Shown here in pieces: positions 7,960 to 54,904 of a stretch of DNA of 64,000 nucleotides (position 1 is its first letter; the number at the start of each line of letters is the position of its first letter). Location of the stretch: contig JAGWKL010000005.1 of NCBI GenBank assembly GCA_028865345.1, positions 21,577 through 85,576 on the forward strand, written 5' to 3'. The position numbers and the translations under genes were made by a program. The DNA is from Candidatus Omnitrophota bacterium (lineage in GTDB: Bacteria; Omnitrophota; Gorgyraeia; Zapsychrales; Fredricksoniimonadaceae). The notes under the pieces are model-generated. The model was not told the DNA's origin. It was given only the letters and a program-made list of their open reading frames with translations, and did not search any database.

Positions 7960-7995
7960 AGTAACCATTGGCCCAAGAAAGGAACAGGGAACCTT
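7960..7995 (-). repeat. Junction element copy 1 (reverse, degenerate)
   Basis: Minus strand AAGGTTCCCTGTTCCTTTC-TTGGGCCAA-TGGTTACT shares TTCCCTGTTCCTT exactly with copies at 11512 and 11570. Confidence 0.65.
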
Positions 7996-8613: not shown

Positions 8614-10290
8614 ATGTCTGATATCAGAAAGTTCTCCCGTTTGGTTGTCGACGGCAATGACCGCGCACCCAACCGGTCCATGCTGCGCGCCACCGGGTTC
8701 AAGGATGAGGATTTTGGCAAAGCCCAAATCGGCGTGGTTTCCACCTGGAGCATGCTCACCCCCTGCAACATGCACATTGATAAATTGGCCGCCAAGGCGG
8801 TGGAGGGGGTTGACGCCGCCGGCGGCAAGGGCATCATTTTCGGCACCATCACCGTGGCCGACGGCATTTCCATGGGCACCGAGGGCATGAAGTATTCCCT
8901 GGTTTCCCGCGAGGTGATCGCGGATTCCGTGGAAACGGTCGCCGGATGCGAAGGCTTCGACGGGCTGGTGGCCGTGGGCGGCTGCGACAAGAACATGCCC
9001 GGTTGTGTGATCGCCATGGCCCGCCTGAACCGTCCGTCGGTGTTTGTTTATGGCGGCACCATTTTGCCCGGCTGCCTGCATGGACAGAACCTGGACATCG
9101 TTTCCGTATTTGAAGCGGTTGGCAAACATGCCGCCCGGAAAATTTCCGACCAGGAATTAAAAGATATCGAAAGCTGCGCCATACCGGGTCCCGGTTCATG
9201 CGGGGGGATGTACACGGCCAATACCATGGCCAGCGCCATCGAGGCTCTGGGCATGAGTCTTCCCAACAGCTCCATGCAAATTGCCGTGTCCCGGGAGAAA
9301 CAATTGGATTGTTTTAATGCCGGCGCCGCCGTCCTGGATTTATTGAAACGGAATCTCAGGCCCCGCGACATCATGACCAAAAAAGCTTTTGAAAATGCCA
9401 TTTGCGTGGTCACCGCCTTGGGCGGATCGACGAATGCCGTTTTGCATCTCATGGCCATTGCCCATGCGGCAGGCGTCAAATTAAACCTCGATGATTTCAC
9501 CCGCGTGAGCAAAAAAGTTCCGGTGTTGGCCGACCTTAAGCCCAGCGGCCGTTTTGTAACGGCGGAATTGGCGGCCATCGGCGGGCTTTTGCCGTTGATG
9601 AAAATGCTTTTGGACAAAGGCCTGTTGCACGGCGAGTGCATGACCGTGACAGGAAAAACCATGCGTGCCAATTTAGCTGATGTCAAACCATACCCCGCGG
9701 GCCAAGAGATCATCAGGCCGTTGGATAACCCCATTAAGAAGGAAGGCCATCTGGTCATTTTATATGGTAATCTTGCTCCTGAGGGTTCGGTAGCCAAGAT
9801 CACCGGCAAGGAAGGGTTGTCTTTCAGCGGGCGGGCCAAGGTTTTTGATTCGGAAGAAAAGGCGCTCAAAGCCATATTAGGCGGCAAAATTGTCAAGGGG
9901 GATGTGGTAGTGGTCCGCTATGAAGGCCCCCGCGGCGGTCCCGGCATGCGCGAGATGCTTTCTCCCACATCGGCCATTGCGGGCCGGGGACTCGGCAAGG
10001 ATGTCGCCTTGATCACCGACGGGCGGTTTTCCGGAGGTTCACACGGTTTTGTGGTAGGGCACATCACGCCCGAGGCTTTTAACGGCGGGCTTTTGGGTAT
10101 CGTCAAAAACGGCGATACCATCACCATTGACGCCGTCAAAAGGCAGATCGATCTTCTCCTCCCTGCGGCGGAAATCAAGAAGCGCCAAAAAGCCTGGGAA
10201 GCGCCAAAACCAAAATATACCCGCGGTGTCTTGGCCAAGTACGCTAAATTGGTCACCAGCGCCTCCAGTGGTGCAGTGACGGACAAATAA
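8614..10290 (+). CDS. ilvD: Dihydroxy-acid dehydratase
   Basis: [50 protein letters not shown]. Confidence 0.98.
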
Positions 10291-10293
10291 CTT

Positions 10294-10371
10294 ATGGCAG
10301 GCAATTCTTTCGGACAGTTTTTTAAGATCACCACCTTCGGCGAAAGCCACGGGCCCGCGATTGGGGGCGTC
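10294..10371 (+). pseudogene. Orphan 5' stub of aroC (26 codons); ORF reads through the element to TAA at 10407
   Basis: [26 protein letters not shown] vs functional [26 protein letters not shown]. Confidence 0.92.
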
Positions 10372-10409
10372 AAAAGGCCCAATTGCTTCGACGTCGAAAG
10401 AGGTTAATT
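10372..10409 (+). repeat. Junction element copy 2
   Basis: AAAAGGCCCAATTGCTTCGACGTCGAAAGAGGTTAATT; perfect palindrome TTCGACGTCGAA at 10387-10398. Confidence 0.8.
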
Positions 10410-11477
10410 ATGGCTGGTAATTCTTTTGGTCAGCTTTTTAAAATTACTACTTTTGGTGAAAGTCACGGACCTGCGATTGGGGTCGTCATTGACGGGGTGC
10501 CGCCCAAACTGCCATTGACCGAAGCAGACATTCAAAAAGATTTGGATCGCCGCCGTCCCGGCCAAAGCAAAATCACCACCCAGCGCCGGGAACCTGATAA
10601 GGCCGAGATCCTTTCCGGTGTCTTTGAAGGCAAAACAACAGGCGCGCCGCTGGCCATCCTCATCCGCAATACGGACGCCCGTTCCAAAGATTATGAGAAT
10701 ATCAAAGACGTGTTCCGTCCGGGCCATGCGGATTTCAGCTATATGGCTAAATACGGGATCCGAGACCACCGTGGCGGCGGGAGATCGTCAGGCCGGGAAA
10801 CCGCCTGTCGGGTCGCCGCCGGTGCGGTGGCCAAAAAGATTTTGGCCGGGCATAAGGTCGGGATCATTGTTTATACATTGTCCGTCGCGGGCGCCTATGC
10901 CCAGGAGATTGATTACAGTGTCATCGAAAAAAACGCGGTGCGTACCGCCGATATGAAAGCCGCCGGGCTCATGATCGCCAAGATTGAAGAGGCGCGCAAG
11001 AACGGCGATTCGCTGGGCAGCACCCTGCAGTGCGTTGTGAAAAATTGCCCTGCGGGCCTGGGCGATCCCTGCTTTGATAAACTCAATGCGCGCCTGGCCC
11101 AGGCATTGATGTCCATAGCGACCGTCAAGGGTATTGAATTCGGCGATGGGTTCGCCGCCAGCCAGCTGACGGGTTCCATCAACAACGACCGGTTTGTCCT
11201 TAAGGGTAAGAAAGTGGGGACCGCCACCAACCATTCCGGCGGCATCATGGGCGGCATATCCACCGGCGAAGACATCACCATCCGTATGGCATTGAAGCCG
11301 CCGTCATCCATTTCCAGGCTGCAGAAGACAATCAACGAGAAACAACAGGAAGTCGAAGTCCGGGTCAAAGGCCGCCATGATCCGTGCCTCGCCCCGAGAG
11401 TTGTCCCTGTGGCTGAAGCCATGATCGCCCTGACGCTGGTGGATTGTTTGATGATCCAGAAAGCCACAAATTTATAA
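10410..11477 (+). CDS. aroC: Chorismate synthase
   Basis: [30 protein letters not shown]; true start ATG 10410 after GAGG. Confidence 0.98.
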   Translation: MAGNSFGQLFKITTFGESHGPAIGVVIDGVPPKLPLTEADIQKDLDRRRPGQSKITTQRREPDKAEILSGVFEGKTTGAPLAILIRNTDARSKDYENIKDVFRPGHADFSYMAKYGIRDHRGGGRSSGRETACRVAAGAVAKKILAGHKVGIIVYTLSVAGAYAQEIDYSVIEKNAVRTADMKAAGLMIAKIEEARKNGDSLGSTLQCVVKNCPAGLGDPCFDKLNARLAQALMSIATVKGIEFGDGFAASQLTGSINNDRFVLKGKKVGTATNHSGGIMGGISTGEDITIRMALKPPSSISRLQKTINEKQQEVEVRVKGRHDPCLAPRVVPVAEAMIALTLVDCLMIQKATNL

Positions 11478-11487
11478 ATCCATTGTC

Positions 11488-11627
11488 ATGCAGGATCAAA
11501 AAGTCATTTTAAATATTCCCTGTTCCTTCGACGGCGCCGGGGTACATGGATAATCGAAAAGTTATTCTCAATATTCCCTGTTCCTTCGAGGTCGGAAGGT
11601 TAAATGGATAATCGGAAAGTTGTCCTG
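11488..11627 (+). repeat. 58-bp-period tandem array: SDR start stub + junction element (copies 3 and 4 at 11512-11545 and 11570-11603) + functional start
   Basis: ATGs at 11488, 11546 and 11604 encode MQDQKVIL / MDNRKVIL / MDNRKVVL; both spacers begin AATATTCCCTGTTCCTTCGA. Confidence 0.92.
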
Positions 11628-12452
11628 ATTACGGGGTGTTCAAGCGGGTTTGGGCTGTCTACGGCTGTACGATTGGCTGCGAGCGGCCATTTTGTTTGGG
11701 CGACGATGAGGGACACGTCCAAAAGGTTCCGCCTGGAAAATGGGCTGGCCAAGCACAGGGCCCAGGCTTTTATCCGCGCGCTGGATGTCACGCAACCTCT
11801 TACCATCCAAAATGTCGTTGATGAAATCGACCAAACCCATGGGCGTATTGATGTGCTGGTCAATAACGCGGGCTATTTGGTCGCGGGGTTCTTTGAGGAT
11901 TTGAAGCCCGAGGAGATCCGCGCGCAGATGGAAACCAATTTTTTCGGGGCACAGAATGTCTGCCGCGGGGTTCTGCCTTTGATGCGCCGGCAAAAGAAGG
12001 GCAGGATCATCAATATTTCCAGTATTGCCGGGCAAATAGGCACTCCGACGCTGGGAGCGTACAATGCCAGCAAGTGGGCGCTGGAGGGATTCAGCGAAAG
12101 CCTTTATTTTGAACTTAAGCCCTTCGGGATTTCCGTTTCCCTGCTGGAACCCGGCCTTTATACAACCGAACTTTTCAGCAAGAATATCCGTTACGCACAG
12201 GATTTTGACAATCCCCAAAGCCCGTATTTCAGCCTGAACCGGAAAATTAAGGCGTTTTCCCATAAGTTCCATAAACTTGGGAAGGACCCCAACCGGATAG
12301 CCGGGCTGATTGAACGGATCATCAATGAGAGGTCCCCGCGTTTGCGCTATGTTTCCGATTTTCCATCGTGGGTAAGGATCAATGCCCAAAAGATCCTGCC
12401 GCCGGCCTGGGTGGCCTATATTCTCAGGAGGGTTTTTCATGCAGACAAATAA
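11604..12452 (+). CDS. Short-chain dehydrogenase/reductase
   Basis: TGCSSGFG, NNAG, YNASK. Confidence 0.95.
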   Translation: MDNRKVVLITGCSSGFGLSTAVRLAASGHFVWATMRDTSKRFRLENGLAKHRAQAFIRALDVTQPLTIQNVVDEIDQTHGRIDVLVNNAGYLVAGFFEDLKPEEIRAQMETNFFGAQNVCRGVLPLMRRQKKGRIINISSIAGQIGTPTLGAYNASKWALEGFSESLYFELKPFGISVSLLEPGLYTTELFSKNIRYAQDFDNPQSPYFSLNRKIKAFSHKFHKLGKDPNRIAGLIERIINERSPRLRYVSDFPSWVRINAQKILPPAWVAYILRRVFHADK

Positions 12453-14420: not shown

Positions 14421-14547
14421 ATATGGAGGGCATAACTCCTTGCGCCAAGGTATTGGGCTTCCCAACACTTTGTTTGGCCGTACTCGTTGACAATCGGATG
14501 TGGAAGGCTGGGATGAACCTTGGCTTAAGGAGTTATGCCCCCCATAT
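14421..14547. repeat. Long inverted repeat (31-bp arms, 28/31 complementary); MITE-like or structured RNA
   Basis: 14421-14451 vs reverse complement of 14517-14547. Confidence 0.85.
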
Positions 14548-14569
14548 CCTCTTGGAATATTTTATGAAA

Positions 14570-14651
14570 ACCATATCGGCGGGTGGCTCGGAATTGATGT
14601 TGCCGAGCGCACGGCAACATCAATTTCGAGCCAGGACCCGTCGCGAATGGT
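14570..14651. repeat. REP-like palindrome, 22-bp stem with AGCGCA loop
   Basis: TGGCTCGGAATTGATGTTGCCG / CGGCAACATCAATTTCGAGCCA (one G-T pair), plus imperfect outer arms. Confidence 0.85.
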
Positions 14652-14941: not shown

Positions 14942-16795
14942 ATGAGCATGTTCGACAAGAACATCAGCGCAGAGAAGCTCAAGAGCCTCGAGTTTGCAGA
15001 AAGCGCCCGTGAGCAGGAATGGAAGGCTCCCAGTTTTGCCCTCAAGCTTTTTGGCGGTTCCCTCGATTTTAATTTGATCCACCCTTTCCCGCAACAGGAC
15101 CCCGACGATAAAAAAGCCTGCGACGCGTACATGGCCCGGATGGAAAAATTCCTGCGGGAAAATCTGAATCCGGATGAAGTGGACAAGACCGGTGAGATCC
15201 CTTCCAAGGTTTATAAAGGTCTGGCCGATCTTGGTGCTTTTGCCTTGAAAATACCCAAAGAATACGGCGGCTGCGGTTTCAGCCAGTACAGTTATAACCG
15301 CATCATGCATTTGATTTCCAGCTATTGCGGCTCGACCGCGGTCCTGCTTTCCGCGCATCAATCGATCGGCGTCCCCCAGCCTCTGAAACTTTTCGGGACG
15401 CCTGAACAAAAGAAAAAGTATCTGCCCATGTTTGCCAAGGGCGCCGTCTCGGCCTTTGCCCTGACTGAGCCCGAGGCCGGTTCCGACCCGCGCAACATGA
15501 GCACCACCGCAACTCCGACGGAAGACGGGAAGTTTTTTTTGCTCAACGGCACCAAGCTCTGGTGCACCAACGGCCTTATTGCGGATGTGATGGTGGTCAT
15601 GGCCGTGACCCCGCCCAAGATCGTCAAGGGCAAAGAGATCAAGCAGATCACCGCTTTTATCGTCGAAGGCGCGTATCCCGGCATTGAAAAGGTCCACCGT
15701 TGCAGTTTCATGGGGCTGCATGGCATCCAAAACGGCCTTATGCGTTTCAACAATGTCAGGGTGCCCCGTGAAAATATTATTTTAGGCGAAGGCGAAGGCC
15801 TGAAGCTGGCCCTGATGACGCTCAATACCGGCCGCCTGACCCTGCCGGCCGCATCGACGGGCATCGGCAAATGGTGTTTGAACGTGGCCCGCCAATGGGC
15901 CGCCAAGAGGCATCAGTGGGGTTCTGCCATCGGAGAACATGAGGCCGTGGCCTTAAAATTGAATTATATCGCTTCTCATACCTTCGCCATGGACGCCGTA
16001 ACATGGTTGACCTCGGCGATGGCGGATGATAAGCGCCGTGATATCCGTCTGGAAGCGGCCATCGCCAAACTTTTCTGCACAGAGGTTTCCTGGCAGATCG
16101 TTGACGCCACTTTGCAGATCCGCGGAGGGCAGGGTTATGAGACATCGGAGTCCCTCGCCAAACGCGGCATGGACTACTGGCCCGTGGAAAGGGCCATGCG
16201 CGACGTGCGCATCAACCGCATCATCGAAGGCACGTCGGACATCATGCACCTGTTCATCGCCCGCGAGGCCCTGGACCCGCATTTGTCCAGGATCAAGCCC
16301 TTACTGAGCGGCAAGGTGGCGCTTAATGCCAAAATGACCGCCGCCCTTAAAATGGTCGGGTTTTACGCAGGATGGTATCCGGGATTATGTCTTCCGTCGC
16401 TGACCGCTGGCCCGGAGGGCGGCCTGCCGCGGCCCCTTAATGAGCATATGGCCTTTGTCCGCAAGGCAAGCAAGAAGCTTGCCCGCCTGACATTTCATGC
16501 CATGATGAAACACCAGCAGAAACTGGAAAGCAAGCAAAGCATCTTAAACCGCATCGTGGATATCGGCATGGAATTATTTGTGATGTCGGCGGTATGTTCC
16601 TATGCCCAAATGCTGGCCCGGGAGACTCAAGCCAATGCCGTGGAGCTGGCGGACAGTTTTTGTGCCGATGCCGCAAACCGCGTCAATGCTTCATTTCAGG
16701 AGAGCGCTGAAAACGTCGACGGCAAGAAATTAGAAATAGCCAGGAGGATTCTGGCCCGTGAATTTGAGTGGATGGAGAACCAGATCATCAAGTGA
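14942..16795 (+). CDS. Acyl-CoA dehydrogenase (ACAD9/VLCAD-like, long C-terminus)
   Basis: AFALTEPEAGSD, LNGTKLWCTNG, QIRGGQGY, RINRIIEGT. Confidence 0.95.
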   Translation: MSMFDKNISAEKLKSLEFAESAREQEWKAPSFALKLFGGSLDFNLIHPFPQQDPDDKKACDAYMARMEKFLRENLNPDEVDKTGEIPSKVYKGLADLGAFALKIPKEYGGCGFSQYSYNRIMHLISSYCGSTAVLLSAHQSIGVPQPLKLFGTPEQKKKYLPMFAKGAVSAFALTEPEAGSDPRNMSTTATPTEDGKFFLLNGTKLWCTNGLIADVMVVMAVTPPKIVKGKEIKQITAFIVEGAYPGIEKVHRCSFMGLHGIQNGLMRFNNVRVPRENIILGEGEGLKLALMTLNTGRLTLPAASTGIGKWCLNVARQWAAKRHQWGSAIGEHEAVALKLNYIASHTFAMDAVTWLTSAMADDKRRDIRLEAAIAKLFCTEVSWQIVDATLQIRGGQGYETSESLAKRGMDYWPVERAMRDVRINRIIEGTSDIMHLFIAREALDPHLSRIKPLLSGKVALNAKMTAALKMVGFYAGWYPGLCLPSLTAGPEGGLPRPLNEHMAFVRKASKKLARLTFHAMMKHQQKLESKQSILNRIVDIGMELFVMSAVCSYAQMLARETQANAVELADSFCADAANRVNASFQESAENVDGKKLEIARRILAREFEWMENQIIK

Positions 16796-19059: not shown

Positions 19060-22000
19060 TTGACCATGCTTAGAAAAATTTTGAGCCTGACCGTTATTTT
19101 CTGTTTTTTTCTCACAACTTTAACCCCCTATCCCAAAGCCCACGCAGATATAATGGCCGCCCTGCCGGCGCCCGGGACCATGGTCAATTTAAGCCCGGCT
19201 TACCAGCCTGTATTGATCAAGGGTTTGACCGTTCATAAAGACAATCCGTTCCTTTTTGATTTCATGGTGGATACCGGCAACAGCGGCATGACCGGCGCCC
19301 GGCTGAAGAAAGAAAGCGACCGCCTGGTCAAATACTTTTTCGCCTGCTTGACCATCCCCGAAAAAGATCTGTGGGTCAACCTTTCCCCATATGAAAAGAA
19401 CCGCATGATCCCCAGAGCCCTTGGTCAGACCGCGTTGGGACGCGATCTGTTGGCCGAAGATTATATCCTTAAACAGTTGACTGCTTCCCTAATATATCCC
19501 GAAAAAGACCTTGGCAGGACCTTCTGGAACAGGGTTTATGCAAAAGCCCGGCAGATGTACGGCACCACCCAGATCCCGGTGAATACCTTCAATAAGGTAT
19601 GGATCGTTGCTGATAAAGCTACTGTATATGAGCATGGCCAGACGGCGTTCGTGGTCAGGGGACACCTGAAGGTGATGCTTGAAAAAGATTATTTGGCCTT
19701 GAAGAAACATATGGCGGGTGCTGTTGAAGGCCGGGCGGGGTCTTCCCGGACCAATGACCTTGGCTCCCAGATTGTGCGCGAGATCGTCCTGCCCGAGATC
19801 GATAAAGAAGTGAACACGGGCAGGAATTTCGTTGCCCTGCGTCAGATATTTAATTCTCTTATCCTGGCCGCGTGGTACAAGAAGGAGCTCAAGCAGGCCT
19901 TGTTGAACCGGGTTTATGCCGATAAGAGCACCGTCAAAGGCATGAACCTGGCCGACCCTTCCGTCAAGGAAATGATCTATCAACGCTATCTGGAAGCGTA
20001 CAAGAAGGGTGTGTTCAATTATGTCAAGGAGTATACCCGGGCCGACGGCCAGGTGGTCCCCAGAAAATATTTTTCCGGCGGGTTTGTTTCAGATTTGAAA
20101 ATGACCGTAGACAAAGACCCTGCGGATGCGGCCCAGGCCGCCGAGCCGACGGGGAATATGGTGGACGTGTCCGTCGGGCTGAAGGTCAAAACCGGCGACC
20201 AGGCCATGACGCCCCAGACCAATGATTTCGATAATGCGTATGTCCTCTGGGACGAGCAGACCTCCCAGTTGGATGAACATACGGGCAAGGGCCTGGTCGG
20301 TGGAAAATCTTATCAGGCGGCCAGGTATTGGAAAGACGAACCGGCCAATAATCTGCGCAGTTTTTCCGCCACCGCCAAGGCTTCCATCGATTTTTTGAAT
20401 TCCAACCAGGATCTGCTTCCCGAGATATACCGTATCACCCGCGACCTTGATGCTTCCGATGAAACGGCCAGGGAAGAGGCCGGCGCCAGGATCCGAGCCT
20501 TGATCACGGGTACGCCCGTTCCTGCTGCCATTGAACAGGCCGTCCGCCAGGGCTACCGCAGATTGGTCAGCATCACGGACCAGCCGTTGGTGGCGGTGCG
20601 CAGCTCCGGGAAGGCGGAGGATATTTCCCTGAATGTCCCGGAACTGGCCGGGATCAATATGGGCGCCAATGCCGGGCAGCATGACACCTTCCTTGGGGAA
20701 ATGGGCGCAGATGCGGTCATTAAACGCTGGAGGGACTGTATCGCTTCGCTGTATACGGCCCGGGTCCTTGGCTACCGCGACAGCATGATGGTCTTCAGCG
20801 CCTTCGGCAAGATTCTGCCCAACAAACAATTGACCGCGGAGATCATTGCCAAGCTAAAGACAGGCAACGATGAGGACAGGCTTGTGGCCCGCGCCATTGA
20901 GGAAAAGAACATAGGGATCATCTCTTCTTTAAGATTATTGCATGCCTTGCAGCGCAACGGTTTTCAGGAAGCGGCGAAGCTGGTCAGTGAAGCGCGCGAG
21001 GATTTCATCAAGATCGCAAACATAGCCATGGGGGTCACGATCATGCCCATGGCCGGCGTTGACATTTCCTTCGTGGCCTTCGGGCATGACATGACCTCCT
21101 ACTGGACGGCGAAGGATTTCCAGGACGTTTCTCCCGAGGAATATCTTAATAAAGGCCGGGTGGTGACTGTCACCACCAATTACGGCCTGGGGGAATCTAT
21201 CGTGCAGGGGGCTGCCATGCCCGATACGTTTCTGGTGCACATTTTTAAAGATTCAAGCGGGGAACATGTCAATATCCTTTCCCGGACCCTGGGCACGAAA
21301 AGCGTGCAGACCGTATATGTCGCCCCTGTCATGGAGGCTCTCGGTCTCAACCATGCTTCGGTGAAACTGTTCCTGGAATTATTGGGGGCCGGGGATGTCA
21401 CGGCCTTCAGCGGCTTGGGCAACGCAAAGGATTATAACGAGATGCATCTTAAGAAGGGGGCCGATCTGGTCGTCATCAAAGACGTCCTGGAACGGTTGAT
21501 CAAAGAAAAGGTCGATGGGACATCCTCTGTGAAGATCACGGCCGATGAGCTGTCCCAATTCACGTATACCAGGGAAGAATTGGATAAACTGGCGCACCTT
21601 TTAAAGGCGTTCCAGAAGGACCCGGAGATCAAGACCATGTTCACGGACGTCCCGGAGGAGTTGCGCAACCAGTTTTCGGCCAGCGATGAGCAGGTCCGCA
21701 AGATCGCCCTGGAGTTCATGAAAAAGGCCAAAGATTTTCACGATCTCGTGGATATGGAAGGCGCCGTGGGCAAGAATTTCAGCCGGCTCAACGTCGCGGT
21801 GACGACCCAGCGCCGCCCCTCCAATGTGGACAAAGGCGACGTCAAGGAACCACGGATGATCAATATCCATTACACCTATGTGAAGGCCGGCGACGTCGAT
21901 AAGATCCGTGCCGGGAAGGAACGCATCACCAAGGCCGACGGACAGTTGACGAACATTGTGGTCGGTGAACAACTGGTCCAGGGCATCCCCACCCGCAACA

Positions 22001-35681: not shown

Positions 35682-36104
35682 TCAGGCGGCAGGTTTTCCG
35701 TGGATCCAGGATTTACTTCCGTCGGTATAAAATTCTTTTTTCCAGATCAGCAGTCTTTTTTTGACCTCTTCAATGATGTAGCGGCAGGCCTTGAAGGCCT
35801 CATCGCGGTGAGGGGCCCATACGCCGATCCATACCGCGGTCTCCGTGGTTTTTAATTGGCCGGTCCTCTGAATGCACACAGCATCATGGATGAGAAAACC
35901 GGTGGTGGCTTCCTTGATTATTTTTTCGCCCTCGGCAAGGACGGCGGGCGCCTCGGCGATATACAAAAGCCCGCTGACAGCGCGGTCGTGTGTTTGGTCG
36001 GCCCTGACCGTGCCTTCAAAAATCACCAGGGCGCCGTCGGCCGGATCGCGGTACATGTTCCTTGCTTGCGCAACGTCGATGGGGCTTTCTTGGAGGATAA
36101 ACAT
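35682..36104 (-). CDS. moaE: Molybdopterin synthase catalytic subunit
   Basis: GALVIFEGTVR, APHRDEAF, IWKKEFY. Confidence 0.93.
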   Translation of the reverse strand: MFILQESPIDVAQARNMYRDPADGALVIFEGTVRADQTHDRAVSGLLYIAEAPAVLAEGEKIIKEATTGFLIHDAVCIQRTGQLKTTETAVWIGVWAPHRDEAFKACRYIIEEVKKRLLIWKKEFYTDGSKSWIHGKPAA

Positions 36105-36105
36105 A

Positions 36106-36154
36106 TCAATACGTTGCTTATATTCCCTGTTTCTTCGGCGCCGTTAGGTTTTAT
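36106..36154 (+). repeat. Junction element copy 5 (36120-36154) plus orphan 3' stub of the ferredoxin (36106-36119)
   Basis: ATATTCCCTGTTTCTTCGGCGCCGTTAGGTTTTAT lies between TCAATACGTTGCTT and TTAATAAGTTACTT (11/14 identical; A-T-Y-stop vs V-T-Y-stop on minus strand). Confidence 0.8.
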
Positions 36155-36409
36155 TTAATAAGTTACTTTTACCGTTCCCTGTAAAATCCTGCATTGGCAT
36201 CCCAAACGGTGGGTACGGTCCATGGCCAGGTCCGTTTCTTCCTTGTTCAATGTATTGATATTTTCTGCGCCTTCGAGGACCTCGATCTGGCAGGTGCCGC
36301 AGACGCCGGAATTGCAGGAAAACGGGATGCCTGCCGCCTCGCAAGCCTCGGCGATCTGTTGGCCGTCGGGTACTTCATAGGTGACATTATCTATAATCAG
36401 TTTTGCCAT
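36155..36409 (-). CDS. Plant-type [2Fe-2S] ferredoxin
   Basis: IPFSCNSGVCGTC...RLGCQC. Confidence 0.93.
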   Translation of the reverse strand: MAKLIIDNVTYEVPDGQQIAEACEAAGIPFSCNSGVCGTCQIEVLEGAENINTLNKEETDLAMDRTHRLGCQCRILQGTVKVTY

Positions 36410-52609: not shown

Positions 52610-53659
52610 ATGTACGAAAAAGAGCTGGAATATCCGGTTAAGACCGTTCGTGCCGGTGTTTGGGGTGTCAGCGGATATACCGGCCGCGAAGTTTTTTCGC
52701 TGCTTTTGAAACACCGGGGCGTGAGGGTGACCTATGTGGCCGCCAACAACACCCAAGGGCCTTTGCCTGAAATTTTTCAGGAATTCCTGAACCGTACGAC
52801 CCTGGTTTGCCGCCCATTCAGCGTCAAGAAAACCGCGAAAAGGTGTGACGTGGTTTTCTTGGCCTTGCCGCACACTCAGTCCATGGCGGTGGTGCCGAAG
52901 TTATTAAAAGCGGGCTTAAAGGTCATTGACTTAAGCGCAGACTACAGGCTTAAAAGCCCCGAGGTTTATGAACAGTGGTATGGGCACAAACATGACGATA
53001 TAAGGAATCTAAGCAAGGCCGTTTACGGTCTGCCGGAGTTGTTTCGTCAGAAAATAAAAGGGGCCGTCTTTGTGGCCAATCCGGGCTGCTACCCTACGGC
53101 GGCCGTTTTGGGGCTGGCGCCGTTGATCGCCACTGCCAAGGACATTTTGTCCATCGTCGTGGACGCCAAATCAGGGGTTTCCGGCGCCGGACGTAAGGCC
53201 GCGGTGGAAAAGCTTTTCGGCGAGGTCAGTGAAAACTTCAAGGCGTATAAAGTGTTGAGCCATCAGCACGCGCCGGAAATCGAGCAATATTGTTCTCAAT
53301 TGGCCGGCAGGGAAACACCCATTCATTTTGTGGCGCACCTGCTTCCCATCACGCGGGGCATTTTAAATACGATGTATGTGCATTTAAAAGAGGGCATTGC
53401 TTTAAATCAACTGTACAATCTTTATAAGAAATTTTATAAGATCGAGCCTTTTGTGCGCGTCCATCCGTTGGGAAGCCAGCCGGAGGTCAAGAGTGTGGCC
53501 AATACCAATTTCTGCGATATCGGTTTGGCGGTAAGCCCAGACAAGAAGATGGTGGTCATTACGTCGGCCATTGATAATTTGGTCAAAGGCGCCGCCGGAC
53601 AGGCGGTACAAAACATGAATTTGATGCTGGGATTTAATGAAACTGAAGGATTGTTATGA
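52610..53659 (+). CDS. argC: N-acetyl-gamma-glutamyl-phosphate reductase
   Basis: GVSGYTG, DLSADYRL, ANPGCYPT, SGVSGAG, DNLVKGAAGQA. Confidence 0.97.
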   Translation: MYEKELEYPVKTVRAGVWGVSGYTGREVFSLLLKHRGVRVTYVAANNTQGPLPEIFQEFLNRTTLVCRPFSVKKTAKRCDVVFLALPHTQSMAVVPKLLKAGLKVIDLSADYRLKSPEVYEQWYGHKHDDIRNLSKAVYGLPELFRQKIKGAVFVANPGCYPTAAVLGLAPLIATAKDILSIVVDAKSGVSGAGRKAAVEKLFGEVSENFKAYKVLSHQHAPEIEQYCSQLAGRETPIHFVAHLLPITRGILNTMYVHLKEGIALNQLYNLYKKFYKIEPFVRVHPLGSQPEVKSVANTNFCDIGLAVSPDKKMVVITSAIDNLVKGAAGQAVQNMNLMLGFNETEGLL

Positions 53660-53721
53660 AGATGACTCGAGGCGGGGTAACGGCAGCTAAAGGGTTTTTG
53701 GCCAACGGGGTATCGGCAGGC
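53656..53721 (+). pseudogene. Orphan 5' stub of argJ (22 codons); ORF reads through the element to TAA at 53775
   Basis: MKMTRGGVTAAKGFLANGVSAG vs functional MKIIKGGVCTPKGFLANGVSSG (15/22 aa); ATGA overlap with argC stop. Confidence 0.9.
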
Positions 53722-53761
53722 AATATTCCCTATTGCTTCGAATTCGTAAGGGGTTCTGCAT
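53722..53761 (+). repeat. Junction element copy 6
   Basis: AATATTCCCTATTGCTTCGAATTCGTAAGGGGTTCTGCAT; palindrome CGAATTCG. Confidence 0.85.
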
Positions 53762-54904
53762 ATGAAAATTATTAAGGGCGGAGTTTGTACTCCTAAAGGT
53801 TTCTTGGCCAATGGTGTGTCATCAGGTATCAAACGGTCAGGGAAGCTGGATTTAGGCGTCATTGTTTCCGAAGTGCCCGCTGTTGTGGCCGGGGTGTTTA
53901 CCAAAAGTTCCATCAAGGCAGCGCCTCTCATCGTCAGCATGAAGCATATCAAAAAAGGCTCTGGAAGGGCGGTGGTGGCCAATTCCGGCAACGCCAATTG
54001 TTTTACCGGTCCCGCCGGGTTAAGGTATGCGCAGGGAACGGCGGAAGCGGTGGCCGGGTTTCTTGGCGTCGGACCCGCGGATGTTTTGGTGACATCCACA
54101 GGGATCATTGGTAAGACCCTGCCTTACAATAAGATCATCGACGCGCTGCCGGCTTTGCTCAAGGGTGTCGGCTCCAAAGGCGGCGGTAATTTCGCCAGGG
54201 CCATCATGACGACGGATTTGAAGGTCAAGGAATGCGCTGTTTCGCTTGTGATCGGAGGCAAAAAAGTCTCCGTCGGCGGCTGCGCCAAAGGTTCCGGGAT
54301 GATCGAACCCAATATGGCCACCATGCTCGGGTTTATCACTACGGACGCATCGATCTCTTTAAAGATGTTGAAGCTGGCTTTAAAGCGCGCCACGGAGCGT
54401 TCGTTCAACAGCATTACCGTCGATGGGTGCATGAGCACCAATGATATGGTCACCGTGCAGGCCAATGGGCTGGCCGCCAACACAAAAATCACGGCACAAG
54501 GGGCTGATTTCAAGAAGTTTTACGGGGCGCTCGAATTTGTCTGCGTCGATTTGGCCAAGCAGATCGTACTCGACGGGGAAGGCGCCACCAAATTTATAGC
54601 GGTCCATGTCAAGGGCGCGGCGGATGGTCCCCAAGCCCGTACAATAGCCAAAACCATCGCCAATTCACCCTTAGTCAAGACTGCGGCTTTCGGCAGCAAC
54701 CCTAATTGGGGGCGGGTGGCTGCGGCCGTGGGTTCCTTGGGGATCGCCCGGATCAACGAGAACAGCGTGAAGATCACTTTTTCCCCCTTTGACAAAAAGG
54801 AAATCAGCATTGGCGTCGAACTTTCGTTGGGACGTGCCGAAGCCACGGTTTACACCTGCGATCTTTCGCTCGAGTATGTGCGGATCAACGGGGAGTACAA
54901 TTGA
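53762..54904 (+). CDS. argJ: Bifunctional ornithine acetyltransferase ArgJ
   Basis: NSGNANC, STGIIG, KGSGMIEPNMATML, STND, DGEGATK, NWGR. Confidence 0.97.
   Translation: MKIIKGGVCTPKGFLANGVSSGIKRSGKLDLGVIVSEVPAVVAGVFTKSSIKAAPLIVSMKHIKKGSGRAVVANSGNANCFTGPAGLRYAQGTAEAVAGFLGVGPADVLVTSTGIIGKTLPYNKIIDALPALLKGVGSKGGGNFARAIMTTDLKVKECAVSLVIGGKKVSVGGCAKGSGMIEPNMATMLGFITTDASISLKMLKLALKRATERSFNSITVDGCMSTNDMVTVQANGLAANTKITAQGADFKKFYGALEFVCVDLAKQIVLDGEGATKFIAVHVKGAADGPQARTIAKTIANSPLVKTAAFGSNPNWGRVAAAVGSLGIARINENSVKITFSPFDKKEISIGVELSLGRAEATVYTCDLSLEYVRINGEYN

Follow-up and report, generated by a model that had tools for sequence, protein, structure and literature searches.

Integrating elements at icd-type sites replace the ends of genes, and in Rhs/T6SS loci the incoming terminus of a gene displaces the resident one. 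Other described systems combine repeats, single-stranded DNA and duplicated gene ends in different ways. In the main text of PMC3333891, TnpA(REP) cuts single-stranded DNA at C^T, and the circles proposed there would capture flanking genes or gene fragments. Ssn nucleases, of the GIY-YIG type, are described as cutting transforming single-stranded DNA on one strand, just 5' of an oriented NTS/SRM repeat (PMC11893778). IS1549 and IS1634 are reported to make direct repeats that vary from 8 to 514 bp (PMC2266710), single crossover in E. coli gives partial gene-end duplications (PMC3240628), and free-standing fungal homing endonucleases adjoin partial gene duplications (PMC7487136).

The window analyzed here is the whole 64,000-nucleotide stretch of a Candidatus Omnitrophota genome (GenBank assembly GCA_028865345.1, contig JAGWKL010000005.1, forward-strand positions 21,577 to 85,576), and its features are collected in Table 1. 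On the minus strand, the working end of fdx (AA GTA ACT TAT TAA, 36168-36155) is followed directly by a 35-nt element in reverse orientation (36154-36120) and then by a second fdx end, the stub (AA GCA ACG TAT TGA, 36119-36106), after which a single T (36105) precedes the moaE ATG (36104). The original prediction of an antisense element accompanied by a second fdx 3' end is upheld by the identity of stub and working end at 11 of 14 nt, by the contact of the stub with a dispersed 35-nt element, and by the presence of a second filled genome, the metagenome locus L218. No promoter- or terminator-like site was found at the fdx-moaE junction, and Rfam covariance models gave no match in the window at gathering score, which gives no indication of a known structured RNA. 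The insert is probably one event of a genus-wide, protein-less, one-ended element. Sequence comparisons make it likely that this 35-nt element travels from strain to strain and from species to species and takes the gene end on its right with it, so that this end replaces the host's own, which is left behind as the stub.

Table 1. Features of the fdx-moaE junction and further element sites, in positions of the window.
Feature	Position	Strand	Basis
fdx, 2Fe-2S ferredoxin gene, 84 aa	36155..36409	-	PF00111, E 6e-14; ORF
Working fdx 3' end, right of element, presumed incoming copy	36155..36168	-	12/13 nt identical to working end of L218
Element core, conserved, one-ended, left boundary fixed	36120..36137	+	Logo of 246 copies; 68 vs 4 matches
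Element tail, variable; closes 2-4 bp stem-loop in most copies	36138..36154	+	Fold z-scores near zero
Strain-variable patch, 4 of 5 differences of a 1,348-nt conspecific contig	36141..36161	+	Run X3
Stranded fdx 3' stub, (K)ATY*, adjoining core, without in-frame start	36106..36119	-	
moaE; start coupled to fdx stop at empty sites	35682..36104	-	PF02391
aroC 5' case	stub 10292-10372, element 10373-10407, working start 10408-10488	+	
SDR start, two stacked 5' events	11488..11628	+	Stubs 11488-11512, 11546-11570; elements from 11513, 11571
argJ 5' case	stub 53655-53722, element 53723-53760, working start 53761-53828	+	
Element copy without visible duplicate; reverse strand gives TTG start of left gene	7960..7994	-	

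The insert is absent from all 29 relatives compared, and these empty sites give it a length of 50 nt. There, fdx and moaE are adjacent in 10 relatives, overlap by one base in 10, are separated by 1 base in 2 and by 2-10 bases in 6, and the last carries another insert. The stub had been proposed to be the ancestral coupled end, so that empty sites should read TAT TGA T ATG. None of the 29 does, so the literal prediction fails and the idea of a coupled junction stands: by position the stub fits an ancestral end, with gaps of -1 to +1 nt at 22 of 29 empty sites. The empty fdx end of the closest relative, G009 (GTA ACA TAT TAA ATG), is nearer to the working copy than to the stub. Nine of the ten genus relatives read TAT TAA ATG; the Ala codon of the stub is native in 3 of these 10, and a TGA stop occurs in 6 of the 29 relatives. 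At L218 the element lies at the same fdx-moaE junction, with a 13-nt stub (12/13 match) that ends in a TAATG stop/start overlap, and the cassettes of the window and L218 are alike at 42 of 48 positions and at 65 of 90 beyond the join. Because the stub lacks an in-frame start in both genomes, its coupling to moaE is lost. The 14 nt of the fdx end are too short to name a donor.

The element belongs to a dispersed family, with 68 PWM matches in genome G000 versus 4 in a reversed control. Relatives that carry it number 15 of 16 in the genus and 20 of 36 in the family; of 24 more distant genomes, 2 have it, as single matches. The core is present in at least two named Omnitrophota records, the matches listed being mostly chance ones in unrelated taxa. 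The 5' boundary of the core is fixed and its right end is not conserved; the fold is weak (z -0.5 to +1.9), and the 2-4 bp stem covaries between element subtypes. An inverted 8/10 match within 60 nt is found in only 11 of 382 copies, and these are doublets. Across all copies the left flanks lean to TCA, and many copies supply a TTG and a Shine-Dalgarno sequence to the left gene; in G000, there are many sites at which the reversed element supplies or adjoins the left gene's start. Regarding carriage by phages, three element patterns had no match in viral contigs.

Several other arrangements accompany the family. A subfamily with a conserved ~70-nt tail (G000 C41:102333, C45:119455 and C15:2484; L204, L376 and L057) has on its reverse strand a TGnTATAAT-like box, a leader, a Shine-Dalgarno sequence and TTG, and may provide a portable promoter plus start for different genes. 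At a compound site (G000 C41:58821-58950), two elements and two stranded starts precede a small gene that is presumably BolA-like, and the longer stub has only about half its residues in common with the working start. Tandem arrays have a period of 38 (52 in L235) at L193, L198, L235 and G000 C5:19207-19245 and C57:187019-187057, and several of the arrays precede GTCATT-type repeats. Inverted doublets of 60-80 nt lie inside larger intergenic palindromic repeats at L184, L202, L213, L214, L233, L050, L195, L223 and L181. The element is also found directly upstream of a tRNA gene, which we take to be Trp, at the same base and with different tails in G000 C57:82360, L043 and L228. A separate 200-300 bp repeat with ~22-bp terminal inverted repeats (G000 C53:13450-13750, C57:50-400, C45:169850-170200, C54:12900-13144 and C18:22750-22950) contains the element nested at two different positions. 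The window itself has two strong inverted repeats at 14421-14633 (arms of 31 and 25 nt), and 14450-14578 is skipped by contigs in all four runs, whose loose ends suggest another repeat family.

Among 382 distinct copies, 34 coding events were picked by eye, each with a second version of the left flank on the element's right-hand side; non-coding tandem arrays, repeat protein L570, compound site C41:58821, weak or unclear pairs (L179, L199, L211, L226, L239, L542, L581 and C45:24121) and L523, where a G follows the join, were left out. Nineteen of these events are gene starts with a sense element and 15 are gene ends with an antisense element, and in 34 of 34 the stub adjoins the core and the gene body is on the right of the element. 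When 241 copies were searched freely, 37 strong repeat pairs came up, 31 of which join exactly at the first base of the element; the other six are three array artefacts, one diverged pair, one tRNA repeat and one likely chance match. Therefore, the earlier proposal that the orientation of the element, rather than the direction of the gene, sets which side is duplicated holds, with the caveat that a right-side stub could have decayed beyond detection. Mirror cases stronger than fdx include an SDR end (28 nt in G000, and 86 nt at the same end in G006 and G022), nusG, aroC and a 97-nt case. Repeat length varies from 11 to 97 nt; an in-frame start is present in the stub in 8 of the 15 mirror events. 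The base after the join is T in 32 of 33 events and the base before it is A in 29 of 33; with shared sites collapsed and L523 added, T is found at 24 of 26 distinct sites (p ~5e-11). The same gene ends have been struck repeatedly: join points differ, events are stacked, and each has its own allele.

Neutral decay of a stub beside a conserved gene is expected to place about half of the differences at codon position 3. In the 34 coding events, positions 3, 1 and 2 carry 178, 42 and 15 differences between stub and working copy, so the copies differ as orthologs do, unlike a neutrally decaying copy. For example, the two copies of the SDR end in G006 differ at 21 of 86 nt yet encode the same peptide. 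The mirror cases exclude selection on translation starts as the cause of these synonymous differences and so point to the mechanism. All types of change occur between the copies, without strand bias, and C>T and G>A rates in the element frame are similar (40/67 vs 19/37, p 0.42). These counts reject a deaminase-like strand bias and carry no DGR-like signature; G000 has no PF00078 match either, so neither the changes nor the profile search point to a diversity-generating retroelement. The notion that the working end is the AT-richer one is correct for the window assembly and fails as a rule: GC3 of the working copy is lower in 17 of 34 events, higher in 11 and equal in 6, which rejects a general AT shift, and in L218 the GC-richer copy of the fdx end is the working one. 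In G000, GC3 is 0.35 in the working segments, 0.56 in the next 20 codons and 0.50-0.65 in the background, and the AT-rich tract mostly ends near the join. The codons of the working copies at the aroC 5' and SDR 3' cases are more unusual than those of all 13 and all 9 relatives sampled, respectively. Stub and working copy often have the same host-specific residues (K/K in G006, Q/Q in G022 and G000), a pattern compatible with in-place change or with patchy conversion. The stub and working copy of L323 are identical at 96 of 97 positions, change being confined to the codons closest to the element, and under import this near-exact pair needs a conspecific donor.

The origin of the working copy is best resolved at the SDR end, where the join point is the same and the tail identical in G006 and G022, members of different genera. 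Between these two, the working ends agree at 79 of 87 positions, the stubs at 71 of 87 and the gene bodies at 77%. In trees built on 87 columns, the two working ends group together (support 98/94) and with the native end of G001 (support 94/98). In addition, G022 and G001 are identical at 113 of the last 120 nt of the gene versus 73% of the body, so the foreign tract extends ~30 nt past the join. At this site, the working copy is an imported ortholog, and the 'duplication' of the original prediction is probably the wrong picture. At lepA, G000 and G010 agree at 46 of 48 positions of element plus tail, 27 of 28 of the working start and 78 of 90 beyond the join, and the upstream flank is unalignable. 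These comparisons show that, besides fdx, two further loci (the SDR end and lepA) have cassettes that have evidently been shared horizontally; the remaining shared sites (atp-like, pdh-like and SDR start) have no excess of cassette similarity.

Variation within the population was seen in sequencing runs. The 1,348-nt contig of run X3 has at least five differences from the window, four of them at 36141, 36147, 36148 and 36161, and the change at 36161 turns the working ACT into the ACG of the stub, so that the working fdx copy of this conspecific strain has the stub's codon. None of the 36141-36161 changes is among the matches listed for X5 and for X1, from which the window itself may derive, and X8 does not span the site. 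In the aroC region, X3 again has the base of the stub, at 10469, and X5 has a divergent tract of at least 28 differences and 4 gaps, the listed changes ending at the aroC stub start. In X5, window positions 10165-10291 carry a divergent allele of the 3' end of the upstream gene, presumably ilvD, that halts at the same stub start. Clusters of strain SNPs also lie away from any element copy, at window positions 16105-16111 and 16323-16381. The population differences fit short imports, and local hypermutation less well.

Profile searches of G000 for a mobilizing enzyme gave no match to Y1, RT (PF00078), IS110, DDE_Tnp_1 or IS1634, and at 30 Y1 loci from 14 genus genomes the element was not found at gene ends. 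A full IS1634 transposase scores over the cut-off in 1 of 17 genus genomes, which are incomplete; this genome, G014, is the one genus genome with no element match, and IS1634 is disfavoured as the mobilizer. The flanks of 24 small GIY-YIG loci, where printed, are GTCATT-type hairpins or none, and at one such locus, L298, the element is found just beyond a GTCATT-type hairpin. Within 1.5-kb flanks of tyrosine recombinase loci, an element copy occurs only at L457, without a pattern, and the ORFs beside element doublets are housekeeping or unassigned, no mobilase being found among them. At G000 C57:294043-294261 (L243), a small Ssn-like GIY-YIG gene lies between GTCATCCTGAG-type inverted repeats; a short stretch upstream is duplicated, and similar cassettes are present in many genus genomes.

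Movement of the element together with a gene end could proceed as follows. Donor DNA that starts at the first base of the element would enter as a single strand, ComEC and DprA being present, and would pair, on the far side of the join, with the homologous sequence of the recipient gene. Either as a flap or via a small circle, the element end would be attached to an A^T step that lies 10-100 nt within the gene. The product would have the order host stub, element, donor terminus, and an event would persist only where a full start or stop came with it. The joining enzyme may, as a guess, be a putative HUH (Y1) or Ssn-type single-strand nuclease that acts in trans. The orientation of the element would set the side because it has one end and carries what is 3' of it. 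A tentative extension, which we hold to be possible rather than probable, is that this is a new homing unit: a one-ended 35-base signal could make any neighbouring housekeeping gene start or end a mobile cassette that is swapped across species and genera at A^T steps, via a putative single-strand enzyme and with no cargo gene.

Other explanations have to be weighed against the import of gene ends. That the fdx pair is a coincidence is suggested by the shortness of the match and by a loose, unanchored score (p ~0.13), yet in anchored tests a match to the stub of at least 11/14 is found at none of 1,927 other called gene ends (at least 300 nt), and mismatched flank pairs reach that level in 54 of 20,000 cases (0.0027); the empty sites lack these 15 nt, and the second filled genome, L218, refutes chance, which is scarcely credible. 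It is unlikely that a miniature transposon of the IS1549/IS1634 type makes long, variable target duplications, after which the right copy mutates fast by a local error-prone process while selection keeps the protein. The L323 pair resembles an exact target duplication altered only nearest the element, four of five strain differences fall within 21 nt to the right of the core, the codons of working copies are unusual, and gene ends that have an unduplicated copy on their left are slightly low in GC3 (0.50 vs 0.56, p 0.024). However, single copies have no terminal inverted repeats, the inverted matches being confined to 11 of 382 copies, and the sole full IS1634 transposase is in the genus genome that has no element match. 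A hypermutable zone would also erase the non-coding tails, which are identical or nearly so between species and genera; moreover, the working SDR end groups with the native end of another species, the AT-rich tract mostly ends near the join, and SNP clusters occur away from elements as well.

Ordinary homology-facilitated illegitimate recombination, or a single crossover of circularized transforming DNA, in which the repeat at gene junctions is carried along passively, would produce partial gene-end duplications like those of E. coli (PMC3240628), and both the competence genes and short divergent imports, one of which ends at the aroC stub, are observed; it predicts neither a join at the first base of the element (31/37) nor a T after it (32/33), and we regard it as decidedly improbable. 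It is harder still to believe that the whole is a module kept for expression, in which the element gives a Shine-Dalgarno sequence and TTG and the stub keeps translational coupling. Although the reversed element serves left gene starts at many G000 sites and 8 of 15 mirror stubs have an in-frame start, the fdx stub has none in either genome, its coupling to moaE is lost, and 29 of 29 relatives do without the insert. An effect on expression is better understood as filtering which events survive than as what the module is for.

If gene ends do travel with the element, the ends of essential genes would be exchanged between species directionally and at specific sites, driven by a tiny repeat, and stranded ends would be a record of donor and recipient. 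The fixed boundary and the A^T join would offer a direct substrate for finding a new single-strand cutting and joining enzyme, and the spread of small non-coding repeats in compact operons without gene breakage would become testable.

A description of the element was not found in the literature searched, which consisted of main texts; the repeat lists of the Ssn paper could bear on its novelty. Like REP/BIME repeats as described in the main text of PMC3333891, it is small, dispersed and non-coding, has a conserved 5' part that gives it a direction, and occurs in tandem and as inverted doublets; the T that follows the join, seen in sequence alone, recalls cleavage 5' of T (C^T there) by TnpA(REP). 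Unlike REP, which has GTAG and a long palindrome, the element has neither a conserved tetranucleotide nor a stable palindrome but only the 2-4 bp stem, there is no Y1 gene beside it, and the captured flank would replace an orthologous gene end; it is thus not placed among REP/TnpA(REP) repeats. As for Ssn/SRM systems, the genus has Ssn genes, and SRM-like repeats sometimes contain an inserted copy of the element, but GTCATT-type hairpins, not the element, flank the Ssn genes, and the element does not flank single-domain GIY-YIG genes (24 loci, flanks where printed); stranded gene ends, a feature here, are absent from the text of PMC11893778 compared. The variable repeat length is shared with IS1549/IS1634 (PMC2266710, main text), whereas terminal inverted repeats are lacking here, carriers (incomplete genomes) have no cognate transposase, and the copies are ortholog-like rather than exact, all of which sets the element apart from MITEs of this type; copies exact at birth are approached by L323, yet the working SDR end is foreign. 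Homology-facilitated illegitimate recombination, as far as the text of PMC3240628 describes it, also combines homology on one side with a non-homologous join on the other and a partial gene duplication, but here the join is fixed at the first base of the element and at an A^T step.

In gene-end replacement and terminal displacement, as far as the available descriptions go, an incoming terminus takes over, the old one is stranded and old ends stack in arrays, as would be the case here; unlike those systems, a 35-nt element without a cargo gene would act here on many housekeeping starts and ends, in both orientations. The mirror series, the A^T join and the evidence for import are new here. The element falls outside every family compared and, by analogy, would work like a hybrid of REP spread and terminal displacement.
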